64,000 nt of DNA from an uncultured Saprospiraceae bacterium. GTDB lineage: Bacteria; Bacteroidota; Bacteroidia; Chitinophagales; Saprospiraceae. This document shows positions 1,641 to 15,312 of the stretch, piece by piece; the stretch's first letter is position 1; every line of letters begins with the position of its first letter. Made by a program: the position numbers and the translations under genes. Location of the stretch: positions 32,940 through 96,939 of the forward strand of contig CAZMSQ010000007.1 of NCBI GenBank assembly GCA_964569025.1, given 5' to 3'. Under the pieces are notes generated by a model. The model was not told where the DNA came from, did no database searches, and saw only the letters and a program-made list of their open reading frames with translations.

Positions 1641-2510
1641 ATGATACCTGCTGCTTTTGACTACGCCGCCCCTGGGACGCTGGAGGAAGCCTTCGCGTTG
1701 CTGGAGGAGTACGGCGATGAAGCCAAGATTCTGGCAGGTGGCCACAGCCTGATTCCAATGATGAAGCTGCGATTTGCAGAGCCCGGGCGGTTGATTGACA
1801 TCAACAACATCCCGGGGCTTTCATACATCAAGGAAGAGGATGGTTACCTGAAAATCGGGGCAATGACCAGAGAATCCGACCTTGAAAGGTCCGATCTTAT
1901 CCCGGGGAAATATCAGATTTTCCTCGATGCCAGTAAGTTGATTGCTGACCCTCAGGTGCGGAATATGGGTACGATTGGGGGCAATATTGCACATGGAGAT
2001 GCGGCAAATGACCATCCTGCAGTTATGCTGGCAATGCGGGCAGAAGTGGTCATCAGCAGTTCGGAAGGATCGCGGGTTGTGCCGATCGATGAGTTTTTCT
2101 ATGGCTTCTACATGACAGCTGTGCAACCTCACGAAATTCTGACAGAAATCAGAATTCCAATACCGGGGCAGCATACCGGCAATGCATATCACAAACTTGA
2201 GCGCAAGGTCGGCGATTATGCAACAGCTGGCGTGGCAGCACAAATCGGTATGGATGCGCAAGGGGTTTGCACCTATGCCGGAATCGGGCTCACAAATGTC
2301 AATCCGGTGCCGATGGTTGCATCTCGTTCAGAGGAACTGTTGAAAGGCAATGTACTCACTGATGATCTCATCGCACAAGCTGCTCAGTATGCATCAGAAG
2401 ATTGCAATCCTTCATCAGACCTCCGTGGTGACGAAGATTTTAAGCGCGAAATGGTCAAAGTATTGACCAAGCGCATCATCAATAAAGCCATTGAAAGGGC
2501 GAAAGGGTAA
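1641..2510 (+). CDS. coxM: Carbon-monoxide dehydrogenase medium (FAD-binding) subunit, xanthine dehydrogenase family
   Basis: N-terminus [39 protein letters not shown] is the molybdopterin-dehydrogenase FAD-binding fold. Gene order M-S-L is typical of form I CODH. AT-rich promoter-like gap upstream (1566..1640). Confidence 0.9.
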
Positions 2511-2535
2511 TTATTTCAGACTAAAATCTCATCAG

Positions 2536-3039
2536 ATGACTCAACAGATTACACTCACCGTCAATGGTGAACAACACACCGTCGAGGTCGAACCACGGAC
2601 GCTTCTGGTTCACCTCATCCGCGAACAGCTTAGCATGACCGGTACTCATATCGGCTGCGACACCTCCAGCTGCGGAGCATGCACCATTCTGCTCGATGGT
2701 AAGTCCATCAAATCCTGCACCGTATTGGCCGTTCAGGCCAATGGGAAGGAAGTGATCACCGTCGAAGGACTGGCCACAACTGAAGGGTTGCACCCCATTC
2801 AGGAGGGCTTCAAGGAAAACCACGGACTCCACTGCGGATTCTGCACTCCCGGCATGATGCTGCGGGCTGTAGAGTTGCTCGAAGACAATCCCAATCCCAC
2901 CGAGGAGGAAATCCGCTGGGGAATTTCAGGGAATCTTTGCCGCTGTACCGGATACAATAATATCGTAAAGGCGATTCAATATGCCGGCGCGAAAATGCGC
3001 GGAGAGGAAACGCCATCTACTGAACCGGAATTCGTGTAA
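2536..3039 (+). CDS. coxS: Carbon-monoxide dehydrogenase small [2Fe-2S] subunit
   Basis: Two [2Fe-2S] cysteine motifs ([10 protein letters not shown]... and CGFCTPGM... NLCRCTGY). Start reassigned to ATG 2536 ([11 protein letters not shown]); the ORF-track start at 2491 would overlap coxM. Confidence 0.9.
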
Positions 3040-3090
3040 GTTCACGAATTGGTTCTCTTTCTTTTTTCACCATTCAAATACCTGCATACT

Positions 3091-5463
3091 ATGATACAGT
3101 GTAAAACCTCCAAGGAAATCAGCGGCATGGGGCACTCCATGAAGCGGAAGGAGGACGACCGCTTCATTCAGGGCAAGGGGAATTATGTCGATGACATAAA
3201 ATTGCCCGGCATGCTCTACATGGACATCGTCAGAAGCCCGTACGCCTACGCAAAAATTAAAAATATCAATGCTGAGCCTGCCCTTCAGATCCCCGGTGTT
3301 GTAGCTGTGGTAACCGGCAAAGATCTTGAAAAGTATAACCTGCACTGGATGCCGACGCTGATGTCGGATACACAGATGGTCCTGCCGACAGATACCGTCA
3401 TGTATCAGGCTCAAGAAGTAGCCGCCGTCATCGCTACCAGTAAATATGCGGCCCGGGACGGCCGCGAGGCAGTCCAGGTAGAATACGAAACCATGAAGCC
3501 GGTTGTCGACCCGTATAAGTCGCTCGATCCGGATGCCCCGGTGCTTCGTACTGACAAGGAAGGCAAAACCGATAATCACATCTGGCATTGGGAAGTGGGT
3601 GATAGAGACAAGACAGAGAAAGTCTTTTCGGATGCTGAAGTCGTCGTGAAAGAGCAGATGCACATTCCGCGAATTCATGTTTCTTCCATTGAAACCTGTG
3701 GTTGTGTGGCTGACTATGACAAAGTCAACAATCACCTGACGATGTACATGACTACGCAGGCACCGCACGCCATTCGTACCGTCATCGCACTGGTTGCCGG
3801 TCATGTAGGACTGACAGAAGAGAAAGTCAGAGTGATTTCTCCCGACATCGGGGGTGGATTCGGAGGGAAGGTGCCGGTGTATCCTGGGTATGTGATCGCT
3901 ATTGCCGTTTCATTCCTTGTTGGAAAGCCGGTGAAGTGGATTGAGGACCGGAGCGAAAACCTTCAGGCCGATTCATTCGCCAGAGATTATCACATCACTG
4001 CTGAGATGGCCGCCACCAAGGAAGGGAAAATTCTCGGGACGCGTTTCAAAATCTTAGCAGATCACGGCTATACCGATGCATCTGCCAACCCGTCAAAGTT
4101 CCCGACCGGACTGTTTTCCATCGGTACCGGCTCCTACGATTATGATACAGCCTTCATGGAGGCCGATGCGGTATATACCAACAAGCCACCCGGAGGAGTC
4201 GCCTATCGTTGTTCTTTCCGTGTGACTGAGGCTGTGCATGCTATTGAACGAATTACAGACCGCCTTGCCCTTGAAATCGGAAAAGATCCGGCTCAGCTGC
4301 GGATGGAAAACTTTATCAAAAAAGAGGATTTCCCTTGGAAATCACCCACCGGTTGGGAGTATGACAGCGGTGATTATCACGCGGGTCTGAAGAAGGCAAT
4401 GGATGCCATTGAGTACGACAACCTGCGTGTTGAGCAGGCGGAGAAGCGCAAAAAAGGTGAATTGATGGGCATTGGAATTTCCACGTTCACCGAAATTGTT
4501 GGTGCAGGACCTTCGCGTGATTTCGATATCCTTGGTATCAAGATGTTCGACTCTGCTGAAATCAGGGTCCACCCAACAGGCAAGGCCATCGCACGGTTTG
4601 GTACAAAGTCGCAGGGACAGGGTCACGAGACAACCTATGCACAGATTATTGCCGAAGAGCTCGGCATTCCGGCTGAGCATATTCAGATTGAAGAGGGTGA
4701 CACAGATACTGCGCCCTACGGTCTGGGTACTTACGCCAGCCGGAGTACGCCCACCGCCGGAGCGGCTGCAGCAATGGCAGCCCGCAAGTTGCGTGATAAG
4801 GCCAAAAAAATTGCAGCTTACCTGCTGGAGGTCTCTGAAGATGACCTCGAATGGGAGCCCGGCAAGTTTTTTGTCAAGGGGGCACCTGAAAAGGTGAAGA
4901 CCATTCAGGAAATTGTCTTCGCTGCGTACACCAACCACCCGCTGGGCATGGAGGCAGGATTTGAAGCGACCCACTACTATGATCCTCCAAACTTGACATT
5001 CCCCTCCGGAGCTTATATCTGCGTGGTTGATATCGACAAGGAGACCTACGAAATCAAGGTGCGCCGATTCGTAGCCATCGATGACTGCGGGAATATCATT
5101 AACCCGATGATCGTACAGGGTCAGGTGCACGGCGGTCTGACACAGGGCCTCGCTCCTGCCATGTACGAAGAGCTTATTTACGATGAAGACGGCAATATCC
5201 TGAACGGAACCCTGATGGACTATCTTGTGCCGACTGCGGTCGAGTCACCTAACTGGGAAACCGGCCACACCGTGACACCGTCGCCCCACCACCCGATTGG
5301 TGCCAAAGGTGTAGGAGAATCCCCGACAGTGGGAGCTCCGCCGGCTATTGCCAATGCCATCGTTGATGCCCTTTCTCCATACGGGATTACCCACCTGGAT
5401 ATCCCGATCACGCCCTACAAAATCTGGAAGGCGCTGAAGGAAAAGGGCGTGTCTCTCGCCTGA
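3091..5463 (+). CDS. coxL: Form I aerobic carbon-monoxide dehydrogenase large (Mo-Cu, molybdopterin cytosine dinucleotide) subunit
   Basis: Xanthine dehydrogenase family molybdopterin-binding large subunit. The form-I active-site signature VAYRCSFR is encoded at 4198..4221. Start is uncertain: ATG 3091, 3127 (MGHSMKRKEDDRFIQGKGNYVDD) or 3139. Confidence 0.9.
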   Translation: MIQCKTSKEISGMGHSMKRKEDDRFIQGKGNYVDDIKLPGMLYMDIVRSPYAYAKIKNINAEPALQIPGVVAVVTGKDLEKYNLHWMPTLMSDTQMVLPTDTVMYQAQEVAAVIATSKYAARDGREAVQVEYETMKPVVDPYKSLDPDAPVLRTDKEGKTDNHIWHWEVGDRDKTEKVFSDAEVVVKEQMHIPRIHVSSIETCGCVADYDKVNNHLTMYMTTQAPHAIRTVIALVAGHVGLTEEKVRVISPDIGGGFGGKVPVYPGYVIAIAVSFLVGKPVKWIEDRSENLQADSFARDYHITAEMAATKEGKILGTRFKILADHGYTDASANPSKFPTGLFSIGTGSYDYDTAFMEADAVYTNKPPGGVAYRCSFRVTEAVHAIERITDRLALEIGKDPAQLRMENFIKKEDFPWKSPTGWEYDSGDYHAGLKKAMDAIEYDNLRVEQAEKRKKGELMGIGISTFTEIVGAGPSRDFDILGIKMFDSAEIRVHPTGKAIARFGTKSQGQGHETTYAQIIAEELGIPAEHIQIEEGDTDTAPYGLGTYASRSTPTAGAAAAMAARKLRDKAKKIAAYLLEVSEDDLEWEPGKFFVKGAPEKVKTIQEIVFAAYTNHPLGMEAGFEATHYYDPPNLTFPSGAYICVVDIDKETYEIKVRRFVAIDDCGNIINPMIVQGQVHGGLTQGLAPAMYEELIYDEDGNILNGTLMDYLVPTAVESPNWETGHTVTPSPHHPIGAKGVGESPTVGAPPAIANAIVDALSPYGITHLDIPITPYKIWKALKEKGVSLA

Positions 5464-5573: not shown

Positions 5574-6083
5574 ATGAAAGCTACGTTTAATAAAGTCTTT
5601 ACAGTCAACGAACCCGTTGAAAAGGTGTGGGATTACCTCAGCGATCCCAAGAAAGTCGTAACCTGCGTGCCTGGGGCAACGCTTGTTGATCAGATTGATG
5701 ACGATAATTACAAGGGGGAGGTAACCCTGAAGTTCGGCCCCATCAAAGCAAAATATGCCGGACAGATTACCTTTCTCGAACGTGATGGGAACGCCCATAA
5801 GATGGTGATGCAAGGCAAAGGACTCGATTCAAAAGGCAAGGGAAGTGCTGATATGCTGATGAACGGCCTGGTCGAGGAAAAGGACGGTGCCACTCAGGTG
5901 ACAGCCAGCATGGAAGTCTCTGTCACTGGTATGCTCGCCCAATTCGGATCCAGACTCATCAATGATGTCACGGATTCCGTATTCGACAAATTTATCCAAA
6001 ACTTTAAGGATAAGCTCGCCGGTAAAGAAGTTGACAATACAATGACTGCCGGATCCATGCTCAAAGGGATGTTTAAGAGATAA
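5574..6083 (+). CDS. coxG: CoxG-like carbon monoxide dehydrogenase subunit G (SRPBCC ligand-binding fold)
   Basis: N-terminus MKATFNKVFTVNEPVEKVWDYLSDPKKVVTCVPGA matches the CoxG family. Position in the cox cluster supports the call. Confidence 0.8.
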   Translation: MKATFNKVFTVNEPVEKVWDYLSDPKKVVTCVPGATLVDQIDDDNYKGEVTLKFGPIKAKYAGQITFLERDGNAHKMVMQGKGLDSKGKGSADMLMNGLVEEKDGATQVTASMEVSVTGMLAQFGSRLINDVTDSVFDKFIQNFKDKLAGKEVDNTMTAGSMLKGMFKR

Positions 6084-6199
6084 CTGATCTTCCGCCTGAC
6101 ACTTCTGCCGAAACTATCACAGCAAAACTTTCTTTGCAAATAAGTAAGCTCGTGGGGGTGTCTGGCGGAGATGTTTGCTCTTTAGAATTAAACAGTCAC

Positions 6200-7090
6200 A
6201 TGGATTATCTGAACGATACGTTACAACTGACAGAGGGTTTTGACCGCCAGAAATATCTGGTGGACGATGAGCTCGCAACCATTCTGTTTCTGATGATGAA
6301 GTTGCAGAAGCCCCTTCTGCTTGAGGGAAATCCTGGGGTTGGGAAAACAGAAGTTGCAAACGTTCTGGCTGGTTTTCTGGATACACCCCTGATCCGCCTC
6401 CAATGTTATGAGGGGCTTGATGTGCACTCTGCCGTGTATGAGTGGAATTACCAGAAGCAACTCCTTTCAATTAAAATTCAGGAGGGCATCGACCGGTCTG
6501 AAGCAGATAAGGAAGCGCATATTTTTGGAGAAGACTTCTTGCTGAAAAGGCCACTTCTGCAAGCAATAACCGCGGCCACCAAGGCACCGGTTCTGTTGAT
6601 TGATGAAGTAGATCGCGCCGACGAAGAGTTTGAGGCCTTTCTGCTTGAGCTGCTCTCTGCATTTCAAATCAGCATCCCAGAAATGGGTACCATCAAGGCC
6701 ATTCACAAACCATTTGTCGTACTCACCTCCAACCGGACCAGAGAGTTGAGTGACGCCCTGAAACGGAGGTGCCTGTATCATTGGGTGAATTATCCGGATC
6801 AGGAACGGGAAATCCGTATTGTGAGCAAGCACCTTCCGACAATTGATGCTCAGCTTGCAGAGACCTTGGTAAAAGTGGTAGGCGTGCTCCGCTCACGCAA
6901 GTTGAACAAGGCGCCGGGCATTGCTGAAACACTCGATTGGGCTTCGGGGCTGCTCGCCCTTGGATTTGAAAACCTTACAGAAGAAAGCATGTCCAAAACG
7001 CTCGGCTGCGTGCTCAAGTCAGCAGATGACCTAGAACGGATTAAAGCGGAAGGCCTTGGCGTTTTGCTCGCTGATATTCCAGTTTCCTGA
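6200..7090 (+). CDS. coxD: MoxR-like AAA+ ATPase CoxD (maturation of the CODH Mo-Cu centre)
   Basis: Walker A LLEGNPGVGKTEVA and a MoxR-type AAA core. Start placed at ATG 6200 (about 296 aa, the usual CoxD length); the ORF track begins at 6134. Confidence 0.8.
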   Translation: MDYLNDTLQLTEGFDRQKYLVDDELATILFLMMKLQKPLLLEGNPGVGKTEVANVLAGFLDTPLIRLQCYEGLDVHSAVYEWNYQKQLLSIKIQEGIDRSEADKEAHIFGEDFLLKRPLLQAITAATKAPVLLIDEVDRADEEFEAFLLELLSAFQISIPEMGTIKAIHKPFVVLTSNRTRELSDALKRRCLYHWVNYPDQEREIRIVSKHLPTIDAQLAETLVKVVGVLRSRKLNKAPGIAETLDWASGLLALGFENLTEESMSKTLGCVLKSADDLERIKAEGLGVLLADIPVS

Positions 7091-7095
7091 TTCCC

Positions 7096-8241
7096 ATGCC
7101 GGAGCACCACCATTTTACAAACTATGGATCACTGAAAGAGGCACTCATTGCCTTTGGTCAGTTGGCACGTGATAACGGCCTGAAGGTGGGCGTGCAGGAA
7201 ACTCTGGATGCCCTCATTGCTGCGCGGGAAGGGGTGATTATTGACCTGCGTGCCATGAAGTTTGCGCTTAAGGCCCTGTATTGTTGTAGCGAGGAAGACA
7301 GTGATGTCTTTGATGATCTCTTTGATTGGTTCTGGAATAAACCCAGAAATGCCGTGAAGAGCCACATTACCATGAAAAACCGGTCAAATCTGGTCAAGCG
7401 CTCAGCTGCATCGGTGGTCATGCTTGGCACAGGAAAGCAAAAAAACGGCCAGGAAGAGGAGTCAAAAAATACATCAGGCGCCAACGCAGTTGAACGCCTG
7501 CGAAAAACAGATTTCGCCAGTCTATCGGAAATCGACAGCCAATGGCTCGAGGAAATCGCCATGAAACTCTGGAAGCAGATGAGCCTGCGCCTCAAACGCA
7601 AACTGCGCTCGTCACCTGGCCGTGGGCAACTCGACCTGCGGCGTACAATCCGTCAGTGCATTGCTCACGGAGGTGACCCCATTGACTTATTCATAAAAAC
7701 CCGCAAGCCAAAACGCCAGAGGCTGATTGTCCTCCTTGATGTCAGTGGTTCAATGGACAAGTACAGTTTTTTTCTTCTGCGGTTCCTTTGCGCACTGAGC
7801 GCCCATTTTGAGCGCATCGAGGCCTTTTTATTCAGCACTCACCTCGTCCGTATCTCCCCCTGGCTAAATGCCCGCAATCTGGATGCGACGTTTCGCGAAC
7901 TTTCAGCCAGGGCTGACAATTGGTCAAGCGGTACCCGCATCGGAGAGTGCTTCCGCTCATTCAATGAAGAATATGCGAAGCGAATCCTAAACGGTCACTC
8001 GACAGTCATTATCTTGTCCGATGGTCTTGACACAGGATCGCCTGATTTGCTGGCCTCAGAGCTCAAGCGAATCAAGTTGCGCACCCGTCAGTTGCTGTGG
8101 CTCAACCCTCTGAAGGGGATGTCCGGATATCAGCCTGTGCAACAAGGTATGAGTGCAGCCTTGCCGCAGGTCGATGTGTTTGAGTCCGCACACAATCTTG
8201 ACAGCATTCTCGAACTGGAAAATTTCTTGCTGAATGTTTAA
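7096..8241 (+). CDS. coxE: CoxE, von Willebrand factor A domain protein
   Basis: VWA MIDAS motif LLDVSGSM. Lies directly after coxD with a 5-bp gap. Confidence 0.8.
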   Translation: MPEHHHFTNYGSLKEALIAFGQLARDNGLKVGVQETLDALIAAREGVIIDLRAMKFALKALYCCSEEDSDVFDDLFDWFWNKPRNAVKSHITMKNRSNLVKRSAASVVMLGTGKQKNGQEEESKNTSGANAVERLRKTDFASLSEIDSQWLEEIAMKLWKQMSLRLKRKLRSSPGRGQLDLRRTIRQCIAHGGDPIDLFIKTRKPKRQRLIVLLDVSGSMDKYSFFLLRFLCALSAHFERIEAFLFSTHLVRISPWLNARNLDATFRELSARADNWSSGTRIGECFRSFNEEYAKRILNGHSTVIILSDGLDTGSPDLLASELKRIKLRTRQLLWLNPLKGMSGYQPVQQGMSAALPQVDVFESAHNLDSILELENFLLNV

Positions 8242-9217
8242 TGAATTTCTCAAAAAAGTCCAGTCTCTTCACCAACAGCGTGTCCCCTTTGCCATGGCCT
8301 TCGTTGTGAACCGCCAGGTTCCATCATCCGGGAAGCCCGGAGATAAGGCAGTTATCGAGCAGGATGGCACAATCACCGGCTGGATTGGCGGAGGGTGCAC
8401 ACGGGGGATTGTCCTCAAAGAAGCTGCAGATGCCATCCGTGACGGAAAACCACGGATGCTCCGAATTAGCCCTGATCAGGATACCTCACCAAATCCAGGA
8501 GTGATGGATTATACAATGACCTGCCACTCTGGTGGCACCGTAGAACTCTACATTGATCCCGTCCTGCCAAGGCCGGAAATCCTCATTTTCGGCCGGTCGC
8601 ATGTTGCCCGTTCGCTCTCGAGGCTGGCCAAAGCGATGGACTACCACGTCACCGTGGCGTGCAAGGGAGCCGACTCAGTGCATTTTCCGGATGCCGACGA
8701 GTTGCGGGAAGCCCCCGTCGAGGCCCAATCTGCCCGGTCAAATACCTTTGCTGTGGTTTGTACCCAGGGTGAAGATGATGAAACTCATTTGATGCAGGCA
8801 ATCAGGAGTGGGGCAGGTTATGTTGCTTTTGTAGCCAGTCGCCGAAAGGCAAATGCTATTTTTCAGACGCTACGAAGTTTTGATGTCTCATTCGATGAGC
8901 TGCGTGAGATTCATACCCCGGCGGGTCTTGACATCAATGCAAAGCTTCCCGAAGAGGTCGCCGTCAGCATACTTGCACAGATTGTGTCCCATATCAGGAA
9001 TGAGAGTATTCAGGATTCTGCTGAGAAAAAGAGTGCCCATGAGCCAGCTGAAAACTCGGCATACTTCGTGAATCCAGTATGTCAGGTGCCTGTCGAGAAA
9101 AAGACTGCAAAATATGTTGTCCAATTTCAGGAAAGAGATTATTACTTTTGTTGTGACGGTTGCAAAGTTGCCTTTGAGGCTGATCCTGAAAAATATGCCT
9201 TGCCTGAGCCGGTATGA
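8234..9217 (+). CDS. coxF: XdhC/CoxF/CoxI-family maturation factor with a fused C-terminal YHS/TRASH metal-binding domain
   Basis: XdhC_CoxI N-terminal region (GWIGGGCTRGIVLKEAADAIRDGKPRMLRI). XdhC Rossmann-like C-domain. Extra C-terminal segment NPVCQVPVEKKTAKYVVQFQERDYYFCCDGCKVAFEADPEKYA matches the YHS consensus. Overlaps coxE by 8 nt. Confidence 0.8.
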   Translation: MFNEFLKKVQSLHQQRVPFAMAFVVNRQVPSSGKPGDKAVIEQDGTITGWIGGGCTRGIVLKEAADAIRDGKPRMLRISPDQDTSPNPGVMDYTMTCHSGGTVELYIDPVLPRPEILIFGRSHVARSLSRLAKAMDYHVTVACKGADSVHFPDADELREAPVEAQSARSNTFAVVCTQGEDDETHLMQAIRSGAGYVAFVASRRKANAIFQTLRSFDVSFDELREIHTPAGLDINAKLPEEVAVSILAQIVSHIRNESIQDSAEKKSAHEPAENSAYFVNPVCQVPVEKKTAKYVVQFQERDYYFCCDGCKVAFEADPEKYALPEPV

Positions 9218-9828
9218 TATGCGCCATTCTTCTCGCAGCAGGCACTTCTTCGCGGATGGGGTCATCCAACAAGCTTTTGCTTGATGTTGGCAACGGTCAG
9301 CCTCTGGTTCGGACAATGGCCGAGCAGTTGGCGGGAGCGCCATTTGACGAGGTGGTGGTAGTAACTGGCTTTGAGAGTGGGGATGTAAAATGTGCCTTGG
9401 AAGGGCTTCCGGTTCGGATTATCGAAAATCCCGCCTATGAATCCGGAATGACAACTTCCATTATTGCCGGTCTTAGAGCAATTGCACCGGACGCGCATTT
9501 TTTGGTGGGCCTGTCAGATATGCCATTGCTGACTGCCAAACATTACAAATTGCTGCTCGCAGAGTTTGAAGCGGCATTAATCGATACCGCCCACCCAATT
9601 GTAAAACCGTCACTGAACGGAGTCCCGGGTAATCCGGCAATCTTCCATGCAGTCTATCGAGAAGAGGTGCTCTCACTGACTGATCTCCATGCCGGATGTA
9701 AACCCGTTTTGCAGCATCATGCAGACAGTGTGATTCACCCAAAGGGACTTCCGGATGTGTTTTTTCTGGACATGGACCGTCCGGAAGAGTATCAGGAAAT
9801 GAGAATGCGGGTGAACCGCGAGGGATAA
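9214..9828 (+). CDS. mocA: MobA-like NTP transferase, probable molybdenum cofactor cytidylyltransferase (MocA-like)
   Basis: N-terminus ICAILLAAGTSSRMG is the nucleotidyltransferase P-loop of the MobA/MocA family. About 200 aa. Start overlaps the coxF stop (ATGA). Confidence 0.7.
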   Translation: MICAILLAAGTSSRMGSSNKLLLDVGNGQPLVRTMAEQLAGAPFDEVVVVTGFESGDVKCALEGLPVRIIENPAYESGMTTSIIAGLRAIAPDAHFLVGLSDMPLLTAKHYKLLLAEFEAALIDTAHPIVKPSLNGVPGNPAIFHAVYREEVLSLTDLHAGCKPVLQHHADSVIHPKGLPDVFFLDMDRPEEYQEMRMRVNREG

Positions 9829-9840
9829 TGCTTCGAAGAC

Positions 9841-10491
9841 ATGAAGCCAACAAAAAAACGGATACTTCTTGCTGCGAAGGACTGCTTCGCGACCAAAGGC
9901 GTTGCAGCAACAAGGCTTCAGGATATTGCCGAACTCGCAGGTATGAGTATCGGTAATATGGTTTACCACTTCCGTAATCAGGTTGAGATGCTGGAAGTAA
10001 TTTACACTAGCTTCCAACAGCGACAAGAAGAACTCCTACAGGATATTTGCCTAAGCCCGGTTTTTTCTAATATCGATGAGTATCTCCAGAATGCTTTTCA
10101 GCTCCATCAGGAATTTTTGTTTTTCCCCCTTCACACCCCGGAGGTGCTCAGTGCGTCGCCCCGAATTTCCTCTGAATGGCGTGAACATCTCCGGTGGAAG
10201 GACCTGCAGCTTGAGTTGATGTTGCGCTTCAATCAGGCCAGAGGCGCTTTAAGTTGGGATGAGGAAACATATCCTGTCGGTGATTTGGCAGTTTTATGGA
10301 GGCGGACAATCGACGGTTGGCCCATGCATCGGGTGGTTGAGCAAAAAAACCTCGATGATTTTTTGGCTTTTCGTAAGAGTGCATGGTCAGTGCTCCTCTC
10401 CCTGATCACACCTGAAGCCCGTCCTGAATACCTAAGGCTTCACTTTACTTCAGCGCCCCAAGTACAGAACACCGTAATTGATGAAGAATGA
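9841..10491 (+). CDS. TetR/AcrR family transcriptional regulator
   Basis: N-terminal HTH KKRILLAAKDCFATKGVAATRLQDIAELAGMSIGNMVYHFRNQ. Its stop overlaps the start of the next gene (ATGA). Confidence 0.85.
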   Translation: MKPTKKRILLAAKDCFATKGVAATRLQDIAELAGMSIGNMVYHFRNQVEMLEVIYTSFQQRQEELLQDICLSPVFSNIDEYLQNAFQLHQEFLFFPLHTPEVLSASPRISSEWREHLRWKDLQLELMLRFNQARGALSWDEETYPVGDLAVLWRRTIDGWPMHRVVEQKNLDDFLAFRKSAWSVLLSLITPEARPEYLRLHFTSAPQVQNTVIDEE

Positions 10492-11963
10492 GCGAGGCGC
10501 TGCTTGAAAATATCGTTGCGAAGCGCGTTGTGCTTGAAAAAGAGCTTGGGATCGACCTATACATTGACAGGAACGATATTGTACAGCGGGCATCTTGTTC
10601 TGTGACTCATCATCAAGGCGAAAGAGGAATTCTTGTCGGTAGAAATCCGCGTGAGATTCCGTACGTGGCTTCCCATTTGTTTGGATACTCCGGAGGTTCT
10701 CATCAGCAAGCCGCGACCATGGCTCTTGAGCATGCATGGGGTGCAAAGGTGCCCAAGAATGCGCGACTGCTCAGAGCCATCGGACAAGCTGCAGAAATTA
10801 TCCAGAGCTCTGTCAGGTGGATTTACACAGCATTTGGGCCGGGCTTGGCCCACCCTGCATTTTCAGGGCTTCAAGATTCAGAATATATCCGGGACCATTT
10901 TTTAGCGTTCAAAGGCACTTCTTTCCGCAGGGGAATCCTCGGCGCCACGTTCCCCATGTCGGTATATGCAGCAATTGCCGGACAATGGCCGCAGGCCCGG
11001 TTTGCCTGCCCCGGAGGCATCGGAACGATACCTGATGCAGCGGCCCTTGCCAGGGTTTCCGGCCTCCTGAGTCGGTTTCGTACCGAGTGGCTGGAAGGGG
11101 TTCTATTACATACCTCTGTAGATGAGTTTCTCGACATTCGTACGTCGGACCAACTCTTTAATTGGATAGATTCTGCCGGGACTCACCCCAAAAGCGATTT
11201 GGCTGCCATGCTGAGTGGTGCCTTGGAAAGAGGGTACCTCAACTTAGGAGACCACTCAGCGCCAACCCTGACGTATGGTGCATTTCATGTCAGTGATCAG
11301 GAAGAAGAATCGATTCCGGAGTTACTCTCATCCCATTCTTCCATTCCCGGGCTGTGTATCAACGGTAGTTCTGTTGATGTATTGAGCAGGGCATCCGTTC
11401 GAAGCTGTATCGAGTCGTTGGGGCAATCTCATCAAACCTGGTATCAGGGCCAACCGACAGAGGTTGGCCCGCTTGCACGCATGCTTTCCCTCCATGCTGT
11501 CCGCCCGGAAGGCAATCTGATTGGTCACATGGTATCTTGGTCAGGTAAAAATGCCTTTGCCAGAATTCTTGCGAGAATCCGCGAGATTATGGTTCTTGAA
11601 AACCGAATCAGATTCTGGCTGGCACAAATTGATCCAGATGAACCATGGAATCTGCCTGTAGAAGATAGAGATGGCTGGGGACTCGGTCTGACGGAAGCGC
11701 CGCGAGGAGCACTCGCCCATTTGGTTCGGATCAGAGATGGGAAAGTGGCGGATTATCAGATTCTGCCCCCAACTTTGCTGAACGTTTCCTCCGGATCCGG
11801 AGACTCTCCCATCGAGTCTGCCCTCAGCCAATTGGAAATCCCGAATAGAAATAGCCTCCATGAGGTTGGAATCATTGCTCGTTCTTTTGATGCCAGTGTG
11901 TCCTGTAAGGTCAGGCTGTTGAAACATCCCTCCGGAAAGGTGATCTTGACGTCAGATGAATAA
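10488..11963 (+). CDS. [NiFe]-hydrogenase large-subunit homologue with degenerate (cysteine-depleted) metal-binding motifs
   Basis: Read against E. coli HyaB by eye, the conserved blocks line up. [50 protein letters not shown] matches [56 protein letters not shown] and [23 protein letters not shown] also match. C-terminal [15 protein letters not shown] stands against LHSFDPCLACSTHVL. The L1 CxxC is replaced by FGYS and the L2 DPCxxC by DASVSC. Confidence 0.75.
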   Translation: [491 protein letters not shown]

Positions 11964-12143
11964 ACATGACAAATGGACGGCGAAAAGTGTATGAACCTTC
12001 GGTAAAATTGATTGTACTACAAATGATTGTTGTTCTATGAACGAGTATGTGATTATTTTAGAGTGCAGTGAGTCGTGCTGCTAAAGATTTAATTTCGAAG
12101 TTTTTTTCAAAAAGTCTACTTTCCCACACAGAATATCTGATTT

Positions 12144-12404
12144 ATGTGTCTTGCCATCCCCGGACGAATCAAAAGAATTGATCGATCAGATCCATTCTTG
12201 AAAAGAGCCCATGTGGCCTTCGGAACCCTTATGAAAGAGGTGTGCCTTGATATGACCCCTTTGGCTCGCGTAGGCGATTATGTCCTTGTGCATGCGGGCG
12301 TGGCAATTAACGTGGTGAATGAAGAAGAAGCGATGCGCACATTCTTATACCTTGAAGAATACGGGGGTCTTGAAGACCTCTTGCCGGAGAGAGACCAGAC
12401 CTGA
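12144..12404 (+). CDS. hypC: Hydrogenase maturation factor HypC/HupF
   Basis: Canonical N-terminus MCLAIPGRI and about 86 aa. Confidence 0.85.
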   Translation: MCLAIPGRIKRIDRSDPFLKRAHVAFGTLMKEVCLDMTPLARVGDYVLVHAGVAINVVNEEEAMRTFLYLEEYGGLEDLLPERDQT

Positions 12405-12407
12405 TTC

Positions 12408-13526
12408 ATGAAATTTCTCGAAGAATACAGGGACCCGCAATTGGCGGAGCAATACCTCAACCGTCTCCATTCAGTAACCACCGGAGAGTGGGTAATTATG
12501 GAATTCTGCGGGGGGCAAACCCACAGTCTTGTCAAAAACGGCCTCATTGATTTGCTTCCCGCCGGTGTAACAATGGTGCATGGTCCGGGGTGTCCAGTCT
12601 GTGTGACCCCACTCTCTATGATAGACGCAGCCATTCGCCTTGCTGAGGAAAAAGGGGTTATTTTGTGTTCATTCGGAGACATGCTGAGGGTGCCAGGCTC
12701 TTCTCAAAATTTATTGGAAGCCAAAGCAAAAGGTGCCGCAGTCCGTTTTTTTTACTCGCCTATGGAAGCTGTCGAATTGGCGCGTAAACATCCAGATCGG
12801 GAGGTCGTATTTTTTGCGGTTGGTTTTGAAACGACCGCACCTGCAAACGCCCTGTCAGTGCTTTATGCCAAACGGCTGGGTCTGAAAAACTATTCGCTCC
12901 TGACTTCTCATGTGTTGGTTCCTCCGGCTATTTCTGCGATAGTCGAAGATGAGGAGGCCTGTGTAGATGGTTTTCTCGGAGCAGGAAATGTCTGTTCGGT
13001 AATGGGACTCAAAGAGTACGAGCAATTAATCGACAGATACAATAAACCCTTGGTGGTGACAGGGTTTGAGCCCGTTGACCTCCTTCAGGGTATTCTCATG
13101 ACGGTGACACAACTTGAACGGGGGGAGTCGAAACTTGAAAACCAATACAGCCGGGTGGTGCCATATGAAGGGAACCCCGAAGCGCAGGCAGCGGTATATG
13201 AAGTCTTTGAGCGGTGTGACCGCGAGTGGAGAGGAATTGGCGTACTCCCGGGAAGTGGACTTCAGGTGACTGAAGAATATGCTGGATTTGATGCGATCAG
13301 AAAGTTTGGGCTCACGTTCAGATATGTGGCTGAGCCATCTGCCTGTATGGCAGGTGAAATTTTGAAAGGCACGAAGAAGCCAGTTGATTGCCCCCACTTC
13401 GGAACCACGTGCACGCCAGAAAACCCCCTTGGGGCTCCGATGGTTTCTTCAGAAGGGGCATGCGCCGCATACTATCACTTTCGCGCTATTTGCAGCGCTG
13501 ATTCACACCCAATACGTACCTTCTGA
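12408..13526 (+). CDS. hypD: Hydrogenase maturation factor HypD
   Basis: CGxH (EFCGGQTH), GPGCPVCV, FETT (VGFETTAPA), and a C-terminal Cys cluster plus SSEGACAAYY. Collinear with E. coli HypD along its full length. Confidence 0.9.
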   Translation: MKFLEEYRDPQLAEQYLNRLHSVTTGEWVIMEFCGGQTHSLVKNGLIDLLPAGVTMVHGPGCPVCVTPLSMIDAAIRLAEEKGVILCSFGDMLRVPGSSQNLLEAKAKGAAVRFFYSPMEAVELARKHPDREVVFFAVGFETTAPANALSVLYAKRLGLKNYSLLTSHVLVPPAISAIVEDEEACVDGFLGAGNVCSVMGLKEYEQLIDRYNKPLVVTGFEPVDLLQGILMTVTQLERGESKLENQYSRVVPYEGNPEAQAAVYEVFERCDREWRGIGVLPGSGLQVTEEYAGFDAIRKFGLTFRYVAEPSACMAGEILKGTKKPVDCPHFGTTCTPENPLGAPMVSSEGACAAYYHFRAICSADSHPIRTF

Positions 13527-14316
13527 CCACGTCAATGTGGTTTGCCGTTTCAGCTCCCGGGAATCCGGTGATGTGGCTGTTGTTCAATTCCCGTTCTGCG
13601 ATCCTTACGAACTCCGCAGAAAGAGGAAGATACGACCAGTGCCACTTTTCTTCCCGATATCCGCTTTCACGGCCGTCTCCATATGCTGTGTATGGCCTGC
13701 AGAATCCGTATTCGGAAGCGTGTGTTTCAAGCCATTGGAAGAGTTTTTGGCCCTGACCTGTTTCGAAATATGAATTGTCGAGCGCATTCAAGTCAATGTC
13801 AGTCCCCCAGTGATGGCGAGAGGTTCCTGGCATGGCACTGTATTCAAGGATGCGCAAAGCGCGTTCTTTTGGGTCAGCAATATCGAGTGCGGCATTGGTG
13901 CCGTCACTAAGTAGTCGAGCCCCCCCCCATTTGGCAGCCCAAATCGATTGCTGATATTCAAAATTCCTTGTGGCCGACAAAATACGTAGCTCATGGCCCG
14001 CCTGAGCTGCATCCCGGTGCATCCGAATGAAAGCTTCCAGCGCTTCTTTTCGTAAAAACATCCCATCGCGGGTGGCAAATTGACGGGGTATCGGGGCAAA
14101 TAAAGGGTGTTTCGCCGGTTCAAAATGGCCGCTCAGGTATGCAATGCTGGTCATCGTCGAGTCTTTTTGGCGAGTAATTGGTAGACACTCTTGCCCTTCT
14201 TTTCTCTCTTGCGTTGGCATCTGCCCTGGATCATCAACTTGCCTTTGCCCGCATGCTGCGAATGTGAAAGTTGCCATGGTAGCCGAAATTAGACAAAAGT
14301 ATCTGATATGCTTCAT
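13486..14316 (-). CDS. Peptidase M15 family (VanY-like D-Ala-D-Ala carboxypeptidase), lipoprotein
   Basis: Lipoprotein signal MKHIRYFCLISATMATFTFAAC. Zn-peptidase motif SRHHWGTDIDL. Start placed at ATG 14316. The 3' end overlaps hypD convergently by 41 nt. Confidence 0.7.
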   Translation of the reverse strand: MKHIRYFCLISATMATFTFAACGQRQVDDPGQMPTQERKEGQECLPITRQKDSTMTSIAYLSGHFEPAKHPLFAPIPRQFATRDGMFLRKEALEAFIRMHRDAAQAGHELRILSATRNFEYQQSIWAAKWGGARLLSDGTNAALDIADPKERALRILEYSAMPGTSRHHWGTDIDLNALDNSYFETGQGQKLFQWLETHASEYGFCRPYTAYGDGRESGYREEKWHWSYLPLSAEFVRIAERELNNSHITGFPGAETANHIDVVRRYVLGVNQRCK

Positions 14317-14479
14317 CAGGCCTGATGGTTTTGCTCTTGGTAAATTTCCATCCATTTTTATTCAAATTAAATGAAATGTATACTCACCTGATAAGATATG
14401 CTCAATATGCAGTTTTTCTTGCAATTCTTCACTTCGCACCGGTTGCAAGTGGTGGGCAGGGGCAATCAATGTTTAGATC

Positions 14480-14704
14480 ATGAATAGAAAAATATTACGG
14501 TTTATTGGACTTGCATCACTTGTCATAACGGCATGGATTCTTGGCAGAATTTCAGGCATCCATGGCGTACAGCAAAAAAACGCGACGGCCAACCCCATCA
14601 GAAAATCAGACTCAATTCGAGATTCCCTTGTGCTCCGGGATTTGCTCTACAAACAAAATGTGAATGACCAGGACCAGCACGTGGGGTTGGAAAACAAGGA
14701 GTAA
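14480..14704 (+). CDS. Small hypothetical protein with an N-terminal signal peptide or transmembrane segment
   Basis: ORF only. Hydrophobic N-terminus LRFIGLASLVITAWILG. No homology recognised. Confidence 0.2.
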   Translation: MNRKILRFIGLASLVITAWILGRISGIHGVQQKNATANPIRKSDSIRDSLVLRDLLYKQNVNDQDQHVGLENKE

Positions 14705-14811
14705 TGTCCAAAAAGTCCTGAGAAATGTGTATCTTTGCGTCCGCTTTTGTGGGGATGCTCCACTGAGTCATAGTCAATATCTTATTTTTTCACCTTTACG
14801 ATACTTCAATA

Positions 14812-15312
14812 ATGCGTCATTACGAAGTAACTTTCATCGTGGATCCAGTGCTGTCGGGCGATGAAATCAAGTCGGCAGCAACCACGTACGTCGATCACCT
14901 CAAAGGGGAGGGGAGCGAAATTGTACACATTAACGAATTGGGCCTCCGTGAACTTGCCTATCCAATCAACAAGCGCAATTCCGGGGTCTATTACTGTGTT
15001 GAGTTTACCTCAGAGACAGGCGATTTTATTCCAAAACTCGAGTTGGCATTCCGCCGGGACGAGCGCATCATGCGCTTCCTGACAGTGAAACTTGACAAGT
15101 ATGGTGTGAAATACAACGCTGACAAGCGCGCAGGCCTGATTAATGAGTTCAAACCGAAAAAGAAAAAATCGGAAGAACCTGAAAGAAAGGAGCGCGACAG
15201 GCGAGATCGCAAGAAAGAGGCCCCTGCGAAGGAGGCCCCTGCAAAGGAGGGAGCTTCTGTAAAAGAAGGCACTCCTGAAGCGAGCGCTACAGAGTCCGGA
15301 TCACCTGAATAA
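14812..15312 (+). CDS. rpsF: 30S ribosomal protein S6, with a charged low-complexity C-terminal tail
   Basis: MRHYEVTFIVDP... is the S6 N-terminus. The S6-S18-L9 gene order supports the call. Confidence 0.9.
   Translation: MRHYEVTFIVDPVLSGDEIKSAATTYVDHLKGEGSEIVHINELGLRELAYPINKRNSGVYYCVEFTSETGDFIPKLELAFRRDERIMRFLTVKLDKYGVKYNADKRAGLINEFKPKKKKSEEPERKERDRRDRKKEAPAKEAPAKEGASVKEGTPEASATESGSPE

Follow-up and report, generated by a model that had tools for sequence, protein, structure and literature searches.

How does copper reach the active site of the aerobic carbon monoxide dehydrogenases (CODHs)? In its delivery to the buried [CuSMoO2] site, the accessory protein CoxF has been implicated in a single organism only, through gene knock-outs and the reading of short motifs (PMC4240915). 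The question is raised anew by a 64,000-nucleotide stretch of DNA from an uncultured Saprospiraceae bacterium (assembly GCA_964569025.1, contig CAZMSQ010000007.1, positions 32,940 to 96,939 of the forward strand), referred to below as the window, whose numbering is used throughout. It carries a tightly packed cox operon in which the seventh gene (8234..9217, + strand), here called coxF-YHS, encodes a CoxF/XdhC-type maturation factor with a YHS domain fused to its C-terminus. From the architecture of this protein and its distribution among relatives, we propose that the tail is probably a tethered arm with which CoxF, the copper-insertion factor of form I Mo-Cu CODH, captures Cu(I).

The open reading frame (ORF) of coxF-YHS encodes 327 aa followed by a stop codon, which is included in the coordinates, and the tail quoted in a preliminary description of this DNA corresponds exactly to residues 280–322. 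All three Pfam domains expected from that description were called significantly. The XdhC_CoxI N-terminal domain (PF02625) covers aa 13–78 (8270..8467, + strand; E 4.1e-17, 62.3 bits versus a cut-off of 24.3) and includes a near-invariant GGGC55 motif. The Rossmann-like XdhC_C domain (PF13478) covers aa 117–250 (8582..8983, + strand; E 6.3e-29, 101.5 bits versus 29.7), and just upstream of it lies a second near-invariant motif, MTC97HSGG, at aa 95–101. Both domains scored above their gathering thresholds and in the N-to-C order of the XdhC family, whereas the NCBIfam equivalog cut-offs for XdhC were far from being reached (43.5 bits versus 161.6). A polar linker (aa 251–279; 8984..9070, + strand), whose length in the family ranges between some 20 and over 100 residues, leads to the YHS domain (PF04945; aa 280–322; 9071..9199, + strand), called with an E-value of 7.7e-12 and 45.5 bits versus a gathering score of 30.3. 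The preliminary description had named the tail as YHS/TRASH, and only the first of these two labels held. The TRASH families (pattern C-X2-C-X19-22-C-X3-C; PF08394, PF24273) scored 19.8 and 17.5 bits versus a threshold of 27, and the first knuckle of the tail contains a single Cys (NPVC). Judged by its sequence, then, the tail is best classed as a YHS domain, related to TRASH but not a strict member of that family.

The cysteines expected of a YHS domain are present, in the form of the D/N-P-x-C and F-C-x3-C motifs. Alignment of 83 fusion proteins, sharing 31–76% identity with the window protein, showed the tail columns P281, C283, F305, C306, and C310 to be invariant. At position 307, 58 of 82 sequences have Cys, 14 have Ser, and 6 have Gly. 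In the window, the corresponding codons lie at 9080–9082 (C283), 9149–9151 (C306), 9152–9154 (C307), and 9161–9163 (C310). An alignment-based AlphaFold model reached a mean predicted local distance difference test score (pLDDT) of 93 and a predicted template modelling score of 0.84, compared with a pLDDT of 34 when a single sequence was used. In the alignment-based model, the last helix of the core (residues 239–268) gives way to coil, with a mean pLDDT of 70 for residues 261–270 and 76 for residues 271–280, and the tail is predicted to form a compact, small beta-hairpin/helix domain in which four short strands are combined with two helices (pLDDT 90–96). The core of the model matched the XdhC-like structures 2we7/2we8 and 3on5 in Foldseek (E ~1e-17).

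The operon in which the gene is found, coxM-S-L-G-D-E-F-mocA, is that of an aerobic (Mo-Cu) form I CODH. The large subunit CoxL (3049..5463, + strand; start codon uncertain; Pfam MoCoBD_1 and MoCoBD_2) carries the active-site loop VAYRCSFR in its translation, conforming to the form I pattern AYXCSFR. On TIGR02416, the NCBIfam equivalog for "aerobic carbon-monoxide dehydrogenase large subunit", it reaches 1235.7 bits (cut-off 991). The loop and the above-threshold score together assign the enzyme to form I and thus to the copper-dependent CODHs. Directly upstream of coxF-YHS are coxD (6134..7090, + strand), encoding a MoxR-like AAA+ ATPase (Pfam AAA_5 and AAA), and coxE (7096..8241, + strand), encoding a VWA-domain protein (Pfam VWA_CoxE, E 2.2e-58), an arrangement within a coxMSL cluster that is repeated in at least 20 related loci. 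The assignment of the protein as the CoxF/XdhC maturation factor of a form I cluster, made earlier from the letters alone, is therefore sound.

A fusion of this kind could also be an artefact, in which a read-through, a missed stop, or a mis-assembly had linked coxF with a small, originally independent YHS gene, and an absent or frameshifted tail in all close orthologues would have been its signature. Core and tail share one reading frame without an internal stop, and the same XdhC_CoxI + XdhC_C + YHS architecture was found in all of the 120 best homologues (55–99% identity) retrieved from a collection of 5.8 billion proteins with precomputed Pfam annotations, those with names belonging to Saprospiraceae, Phaeodactylibacter, Chitinophagales, and other Bacteroidota. 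In addition, a scan of contigs from species-representative genomes recovered 22 intact fusions in Bacteroidota (Saprospiraceae, Cyclobacteriaceae, Cytophagales, Ohtaekwangia) and in Beta- and Gammaproteobacteria (Casimicrobiaceae, Steroidobacteraceae, Burkholderiales), and the gene order was coxM-S-L-G-D-E-F(YHS) wherever the flank sufficed; the scan patterns included DYYFCCDG, so it finds fusions only and informs on distribution, not on frequency. The one case on the side of an artefact is a Saprospiraceae metagenome-assembled contig (L013), in which the tail lies in a different frame and the YHS is split from the core (10001–10964). However, the coxL of this contig (4285–6642) is also broken, into three frames, which marks the contig as error-rich, and the frameshifts are most likely due to assembly or sequencing error rather than to pseudogenisation. 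With a continuous ORF in all 120 close homologues and in loci from independent assemblies and complete genomes, a read-through artefact was rejected, its probability being practically nil.

The frequency of the fusion, a survey of which had been suggested in the preliminary description, was estimated with the XdhC core alone (aa 1–262) as the query against 1.84 billion representatives clustered at 50% identity. The best 150 representatives were analysed (E 1e-82 to 4e-41), with identities of 32–71% over the matched stretches, typically 35–55%. Pfam detected YHS in 82 of them and HMA in 2; among CoxF-type proteins near that of the window, the fusion is a common feature, not a rare one. Reading of the motifs gave a YHS tail in 83/150, one of them with two copies (P0124) and several with MocA fused N-terminally, and an HMA-like tail in 3/150, with the motif GMSC(A/S)HC in P0132 and P0175 and NCGSC in P0238. 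About 24 of the 150 ended in a short, low-complexity tail containing ...CC..., such as ...GGCCGG or ...SCCxx, 14 had a tail of at most 20 aa, 14 were fragments, and the remaining 12 had other tails, two of which (P0172, P0262) resemble a frameshifted YHS. The proteins with Cys-Cys tails include P0152, P0165, P0183, P0213, P0223, P0225, P0236, P0250, P0258, and P0270, and loci L033–L035 belong to this group; the motif sits after a low-complexity linker and is sometimes duplicated. This ending may be a minimal, previously undescribed metal-binding tail.

The HMA variant is best illustrated by the CoxF of Rhodothermus marinus (P0132, locus L031; record AP019797.1; PMC6952675), whose tail reads ...LHIEGMSCAHCLHTVEKTLKALPGV..., with the HMA motif GMSCAHC, and has the CopZ copper-chaperone families as its best NCBIfam match (E 3e-15). 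The locus repeats the operon order of the window, coxM-S-L-G-D-E-F(HMA)-mocA, next to a CoxL with the AYRCSFR loop. When its 120 best homologues were examined, HMA was present in 38, YHS in 79, and neither domain in 3. Within the set of 150 representatives, the core closest to that of P0132 belongs to the YHS-bearing P0158 (55% identity), and the nearest cores of the HMA-tailed proteins are those of YHS proteins (55% and 43% identity), from which we infer that one module has been replaced by another on a single core lineage.

As a specificity control, we used the long-form XdhC paralogue (338 aa, without a Cys tail) that adjoins the cluster of a Cyclobacteriaceae genome (L005), and none of its 120 best homologues carried YHS or HMA. 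Such a second, long-form paralogue lacking the Cys tail flanks the cox clusters both in this genome (457–1473, − strand) and in R. marinus (L031, 12047–13234, − strand), and it is possibly a CoxI/PaoD-like chaperone of the molybdenum cofactor (Moco). In the Cyclobacteriaceae genome, ORFs resembling Moco biosynthesis genes (MoeB/ThiF-rhodanese, MoaE, MoaC, MoeA; translations read by eye) were also seen at 10979–14904. Within the window, no second XdhC gene was found elsewhere.

The tails are thus restricted to CoxF-type paralogues in form I clusters, and the Cys-containing loop was present in every CoxL visible beside a tailed CoxF. AYRCSFR was read in the CoxL of the window, of 12 Bacteroidota loci, of R. 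marinus, of a haloarchaeal-like contig, and of an actinobacterial contig, while five proteobacterial CoxF-YHS loci (L016–L019, L021) showed AYRCSLR instead of the textbook form I loop, with the Cu-ligating Cys kept. The haloarchaeal-like contig (acidic proteome, Pelota gene) is ordered coxM-S-L-F(YHS)-D-E, and in the actinobacterial one (Pup ligase), the gene after coxM-S-L encodes an XdhC whose YHS tail is degenerate. Two of the Cys-Cys-tailed proteins (P0258, P0213) also come after coxD-coxE, and in two further loci (L040, L041), coxF(YHS) lies immediately 5' of coxD. Other arrangements of the module were a MocA-XdhC-YHS triple fusion of 565 aa (L039, 1669–3366) beside coxG and a coxL encoding AYRCSFR, and a CoxF of 377 aa with two tandem YHS domains (L038, 1271–2404). 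No tailed XdhC was found beside a form II or xanthine dehydrogenase cluster in the contexts examined, a small sample, and the contigs of P0152 and P0200 were too short for their gene context to be read.

The same YHS variant was found on a copper pump. In the Olavius Gamma 3 symbiont (L027, 9923–12433), an 837-aa P1B ATPase begins with a YHS domain containing DYYFCCDGC, continues with repeated CPxC modules, carries the CPC motif, and passes the copper-translocating model TIGR01511 (595.6 bits versus a cut-off of 397); a 787-aa protein of a Halobacteria metagenome-assembled genome (L028, 3–2363) has the same DYYFCCDGC and CPC motifs and the same layout, by reading of the translation only. Moreover, the YHS domain of the Mycobacterium phlei adenylyl cyclase mediates a Cu-specific response, in which one Asp and three Cys probably take part (PMC4626032). 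It is from this precedent and from the substitution of HMA and Cys-Cys tails for YHS that copper binding by the YHS tail of CoxF is deduced, and the swapping of tails, together with the tail-free XdhC paralogue, strengthens the case for a role in copper delivery. The preliminary description had regarded the fused module as sequence-level support for such a role; the HMA/CopZ-like and Cys-Cys tails of other lineages appear to add weight to that suggestion.

In Oligotropha carboxidovorans, coxF::km mutants produce a Cu-free CODH, and CoxF has been proposed as a copper escort on the basis of the short motif M107CPSHGTM (PMC4240915). A putative model of how Cu(I) is bound, which way it is passed on, and where the protein docks can be outlined from the comparisons above. 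The YHS domain, tethered by a flexible linker some 30 residues long, would take up Cu(I) through C283, C306, and C310, usually with the addition of C307, the ion coming either from a chaperone or from the pool in the cytoplasm. Together with CoxD and CoxE, the XdhC-like core would dock on the folded and already sulfurated apo-CODH, and the arm would then pass Cu(I) to the Mo-SH/CoxL-Cys site, either directly or by way of the conserved core cysteines C55 and C97, completing the [CuSMoO2] cluster.

Several observations weigh against this proposal. In the core survey, 82 representatives bear the motif, and the residue preceding P-x-C is Asp in 74 of them and Asn in 6; it is Asn in the window protein and likewise in every fusion locus of the genome scan, at the position where Linder proposed the Asp as a ligand. 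Among the 150 representatives, 14 are tail-less, and one of these (P0265, locus L042) sits in a coxE-mocA-coxF context; the CoxF of O. carboxidovorans OM5, with 280 aa, also has no YHS, HMA, or CC tail (PMC4240915). Since such tail-less proteins occur in cox contexts, the tail is not obligatory: it is dispensable in some lineages, and helpful rather than essential. In addition, structural Zn binding is also possible for YHS/TRASH-like treble-clef modules. Finally, the sole solved-structure match of the tail in a sequence search of the PDB was a phenol hydroxylase, at a non-significant E-value of 0.38, which was not used as evidence.

The possibility of Zn binding leads to the reading of the tail as a structural Zn-ribbon of the treble-clef type, serving to dock on CoxE, CoxD, or CoxL, for example, and not to carry the metal of the enzyme. 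The grouping of YHS with TRASH and zf-FCS-like Cys-knuckle folds, the weak, sub-threshold matches to TRASH families and zf-FCS among CoxF-type proteins, and the phenol hydroxylase region just mentioned as the only structural match are in keeping with it. However, replacement of the domain, at the same place in the operon, by an HMA/CopZ-like module or by an unstructured ...CC... tail fits soft-metal binding and hardly a docking surface, and the same YHS variant stands at the head of a Cu-translocating ATPase, so we regard a purely structural ribbon as unlikely. It is also improbable that the tail works as a copper sensor or buffer, gating CoxF according to the availability of copper, or sequestering stray Cu(I) and protecting sulfurated Moco, with no donation of the metal. 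Such a function would agree with the one experimentally studied YHS domain being a Cu-responsive regulatory module (PMC4626032), and with the protection of sulfurated Moco attributed to XdhC-type proteins (PMC4240915). Against it, the tails are limited to the CoxF-type factors of the only Cu-requiring enzyme of the family and are missing from the paralogue, whereas a general protection should benefit other XdhC proteins too. Where an HMA domain is fused to a partner protein, its usual role is metal transfer, which again speaks for donation rather than for sensing or buffering.

A sulfur relay, in which the Cys-rich tail would bring the bridging sulfide of [CuSMoO2] as a persulfide rather than copper, has in its favour that the XdhC of Rhodobacter capsulatus works with a cysteine desulfurase and that Cys-Cys tails could carry persulfide. 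We consider it very unlikely, as HMA and YHS are metal-binding folds that are not known as sulfur carriers, and as sulfuration in O. carboxidovorans depends on CoxD, while the coxE and coxF mutants contain a CODH with sulfurated Mo but without Cu (PMC4240915). The tethered Cu(I)-capturing arm is thus retained as the probable role of the tail. Whether the proposal can be widened, making of CoxF the dedicated Cu(I) insertase of Mo-Cu CODHs and of its C-terminus an interchangeable copper-acquisition arm (YHS, HMA/CopZ-like, or Cys-Cys), is to our mind an evenly balanced matter.

A conserved, interchangeable, putative copper module at the C-terminus of CoxF/XdhC appears to be undescribed. Precomputed Pfam annotations already contain the domain combination itself, and "YHS domain-containing protein" is the name of one NCBI entry. 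No NCBIfam model names a family of YHS-tailed CoxF, and the database labels of YHS- and HMA-tailed proteins are "XdhC family protein" or "xanthine dehydrogenase accessory factor". In the literature search (full text; subscription-only literature outside its scope), no paper was found that deals with XdhC/CoxF together with YHS, TRASH, HMA, or CopZ. To a specialist, the finding should be moderately surprising: a soft-metal module on most CoxF-type proteins near that of the window, its swapping, and a tail-free paralogue amount to comparative evidence for a Cu-chaperone role that is independent of the genetic work. The three invariant cysteines provide a small, soluble, and mutable handle for biochemistry, with which the question of copper insertion becomes directly testable. 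If the wider proposal were true, the type of tail would be a genomic marker of the truly Cu-dependent form I enzymes, and a tailed CoxF would be the missing ingredient for fully Cu-loaded recombinant CODH; the finding could in this way aid the heterologous production of active enzyme and the annotation of atmospheric CO oxidisers.

The other genes of the operon all lie on the + strand. It begins with coxM (1641..2510), encoding the medium subunit that binds flavin adenine dinucleotide (Pfam FAD_binding_5, E 3.4e-52, and CO_deh_flav_C), followed by coxS (2491..3039), encoding the [2Fe-2S] small subunit (Pfam Fer2_2 and Fer2), for which the listed start is TTG and the true start may be further downstream. 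The gene coxG (5574..6083; Pfam COXG, E 2.5e-24) is located between coxL and coxD. The coxE stop region and the coxF start overlap by 8 nt, and the stop of coxF shares the sequence ATGA with the start of a mocA-like gene (9214..9828), which is translationally coupled to it. The latter encodes a molybdenum cofactor cytidylyltransferase (Pfam NTP_transf_3, E 7e-33), whose best NCBIfam matches, both below their cut-offs, are NF045665 (DVU_1551-family NTP transferase, E 6.9e-34) and TIGR03310 (MocA, E 3.5e-31). The best NCBIfam similarity of CoxD is to "MadB family AAA-type ATPase" (267 bits versus a cut-off of 475), and that of the window CoxE, also below the cut-off, is to "MadC family VWA domain-containing protein", which suggests, at the level of sequence likeness, a related ATPase/VWA pair in another system.

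Immediately 5' of coxM, the window contains a gene for a BNR/Asp-box (sortilin-Vps10-like) beta-propeller protein (462–1565), kept in many Bacteroidota cox loci with 52–63% identity (L003–L005, L007–L009, L013, L023, L024, L026). On the other side, the operon is followed by a TetR gene (9841–10491) and then, in the region 10488–13526, by an ORF for a 491-aa protein homologous to the large subunit of NiFe hydrogenases (Pfam NiFeSe_Hases, 94.9 bits), which by eye does not have the canonical Ni-Fe Cys motifs (RASCSVTHH for RxCGxC, FDASVSC for DPCxxC). A HypC-like ORF (12144–12404, beginning with MCLAIPG) and HypD (12408–13526) are located 3' of it; no small subunit and no other hyp genes were seen nearby, and the hydrogenase-like ORF had no match in any of the related cox loci compared. 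No copper-handling gene was found among the window ORFs of at least 180 aa that were scanned, small CopZ-like genes falling outside that size range. The remaining genes of the window are ordinary housekeeping ones, for ribosomal proteins, RecA, tRNA synthetases, and CarB, plus one whose product has a type IX secretion system sorting domain, a gene content that fits a Bacteroidota genome.

When compared with known systems, the window CoxF and that of O. carboxidovorans OM5 are alike in their XdhC_CoxI + XdhC_C core and in following coxD-coxE within a coxMSL cluster, the gene order differing in that coxG stands before coxD in the window. The Cys of the M-x-C-x-S-x-G motif of the OM5 protein (M107CPSHGTM), its proposed Cu site, corresponds to MTC97HSGG here; for the C-terminus, the OM5 authors invoked a phytase-like motif (PMC4240915). 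The XdhC of R. capsulatus and the PaoD of Escherichia coli share with the window protein the two-domain fold, the conserved core cysteines, and a system-specific role in molybdo-flavoenzyme maturation (PMC2997495). In contrast, these two proteins lack a metal-binding appendage, and it is sulfurated Moco that they bind and insert. The CoxF-HMA of R. marinus, together with about 38 related clusters, has the operon, the form I CoxL, and the core in common with the window, as well as a Cys-based C-terminal module on a linker, this module being a ferredoxin-like HMA domain (GMSCAHC, CopZ-like) in the former and YHS in the latter. Finally, the YHS domains of the P1B Cu-ATPase and of the M. phlei cyclase belong to the same Pfam family as the tail, show (as read in L027 and L028) the same D/N-P-x-C ... 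Y-Y-F-C-C-x-x-C pattern, and are likewise fused by a linker to an effector. In those proteins the domain is associated with a pump or with the regulation of a cyclase, whereas in the window, the effector is a molybdoenzyme maturation factor, and the YHS domain is proposed to donate the metal to a client enzyme.

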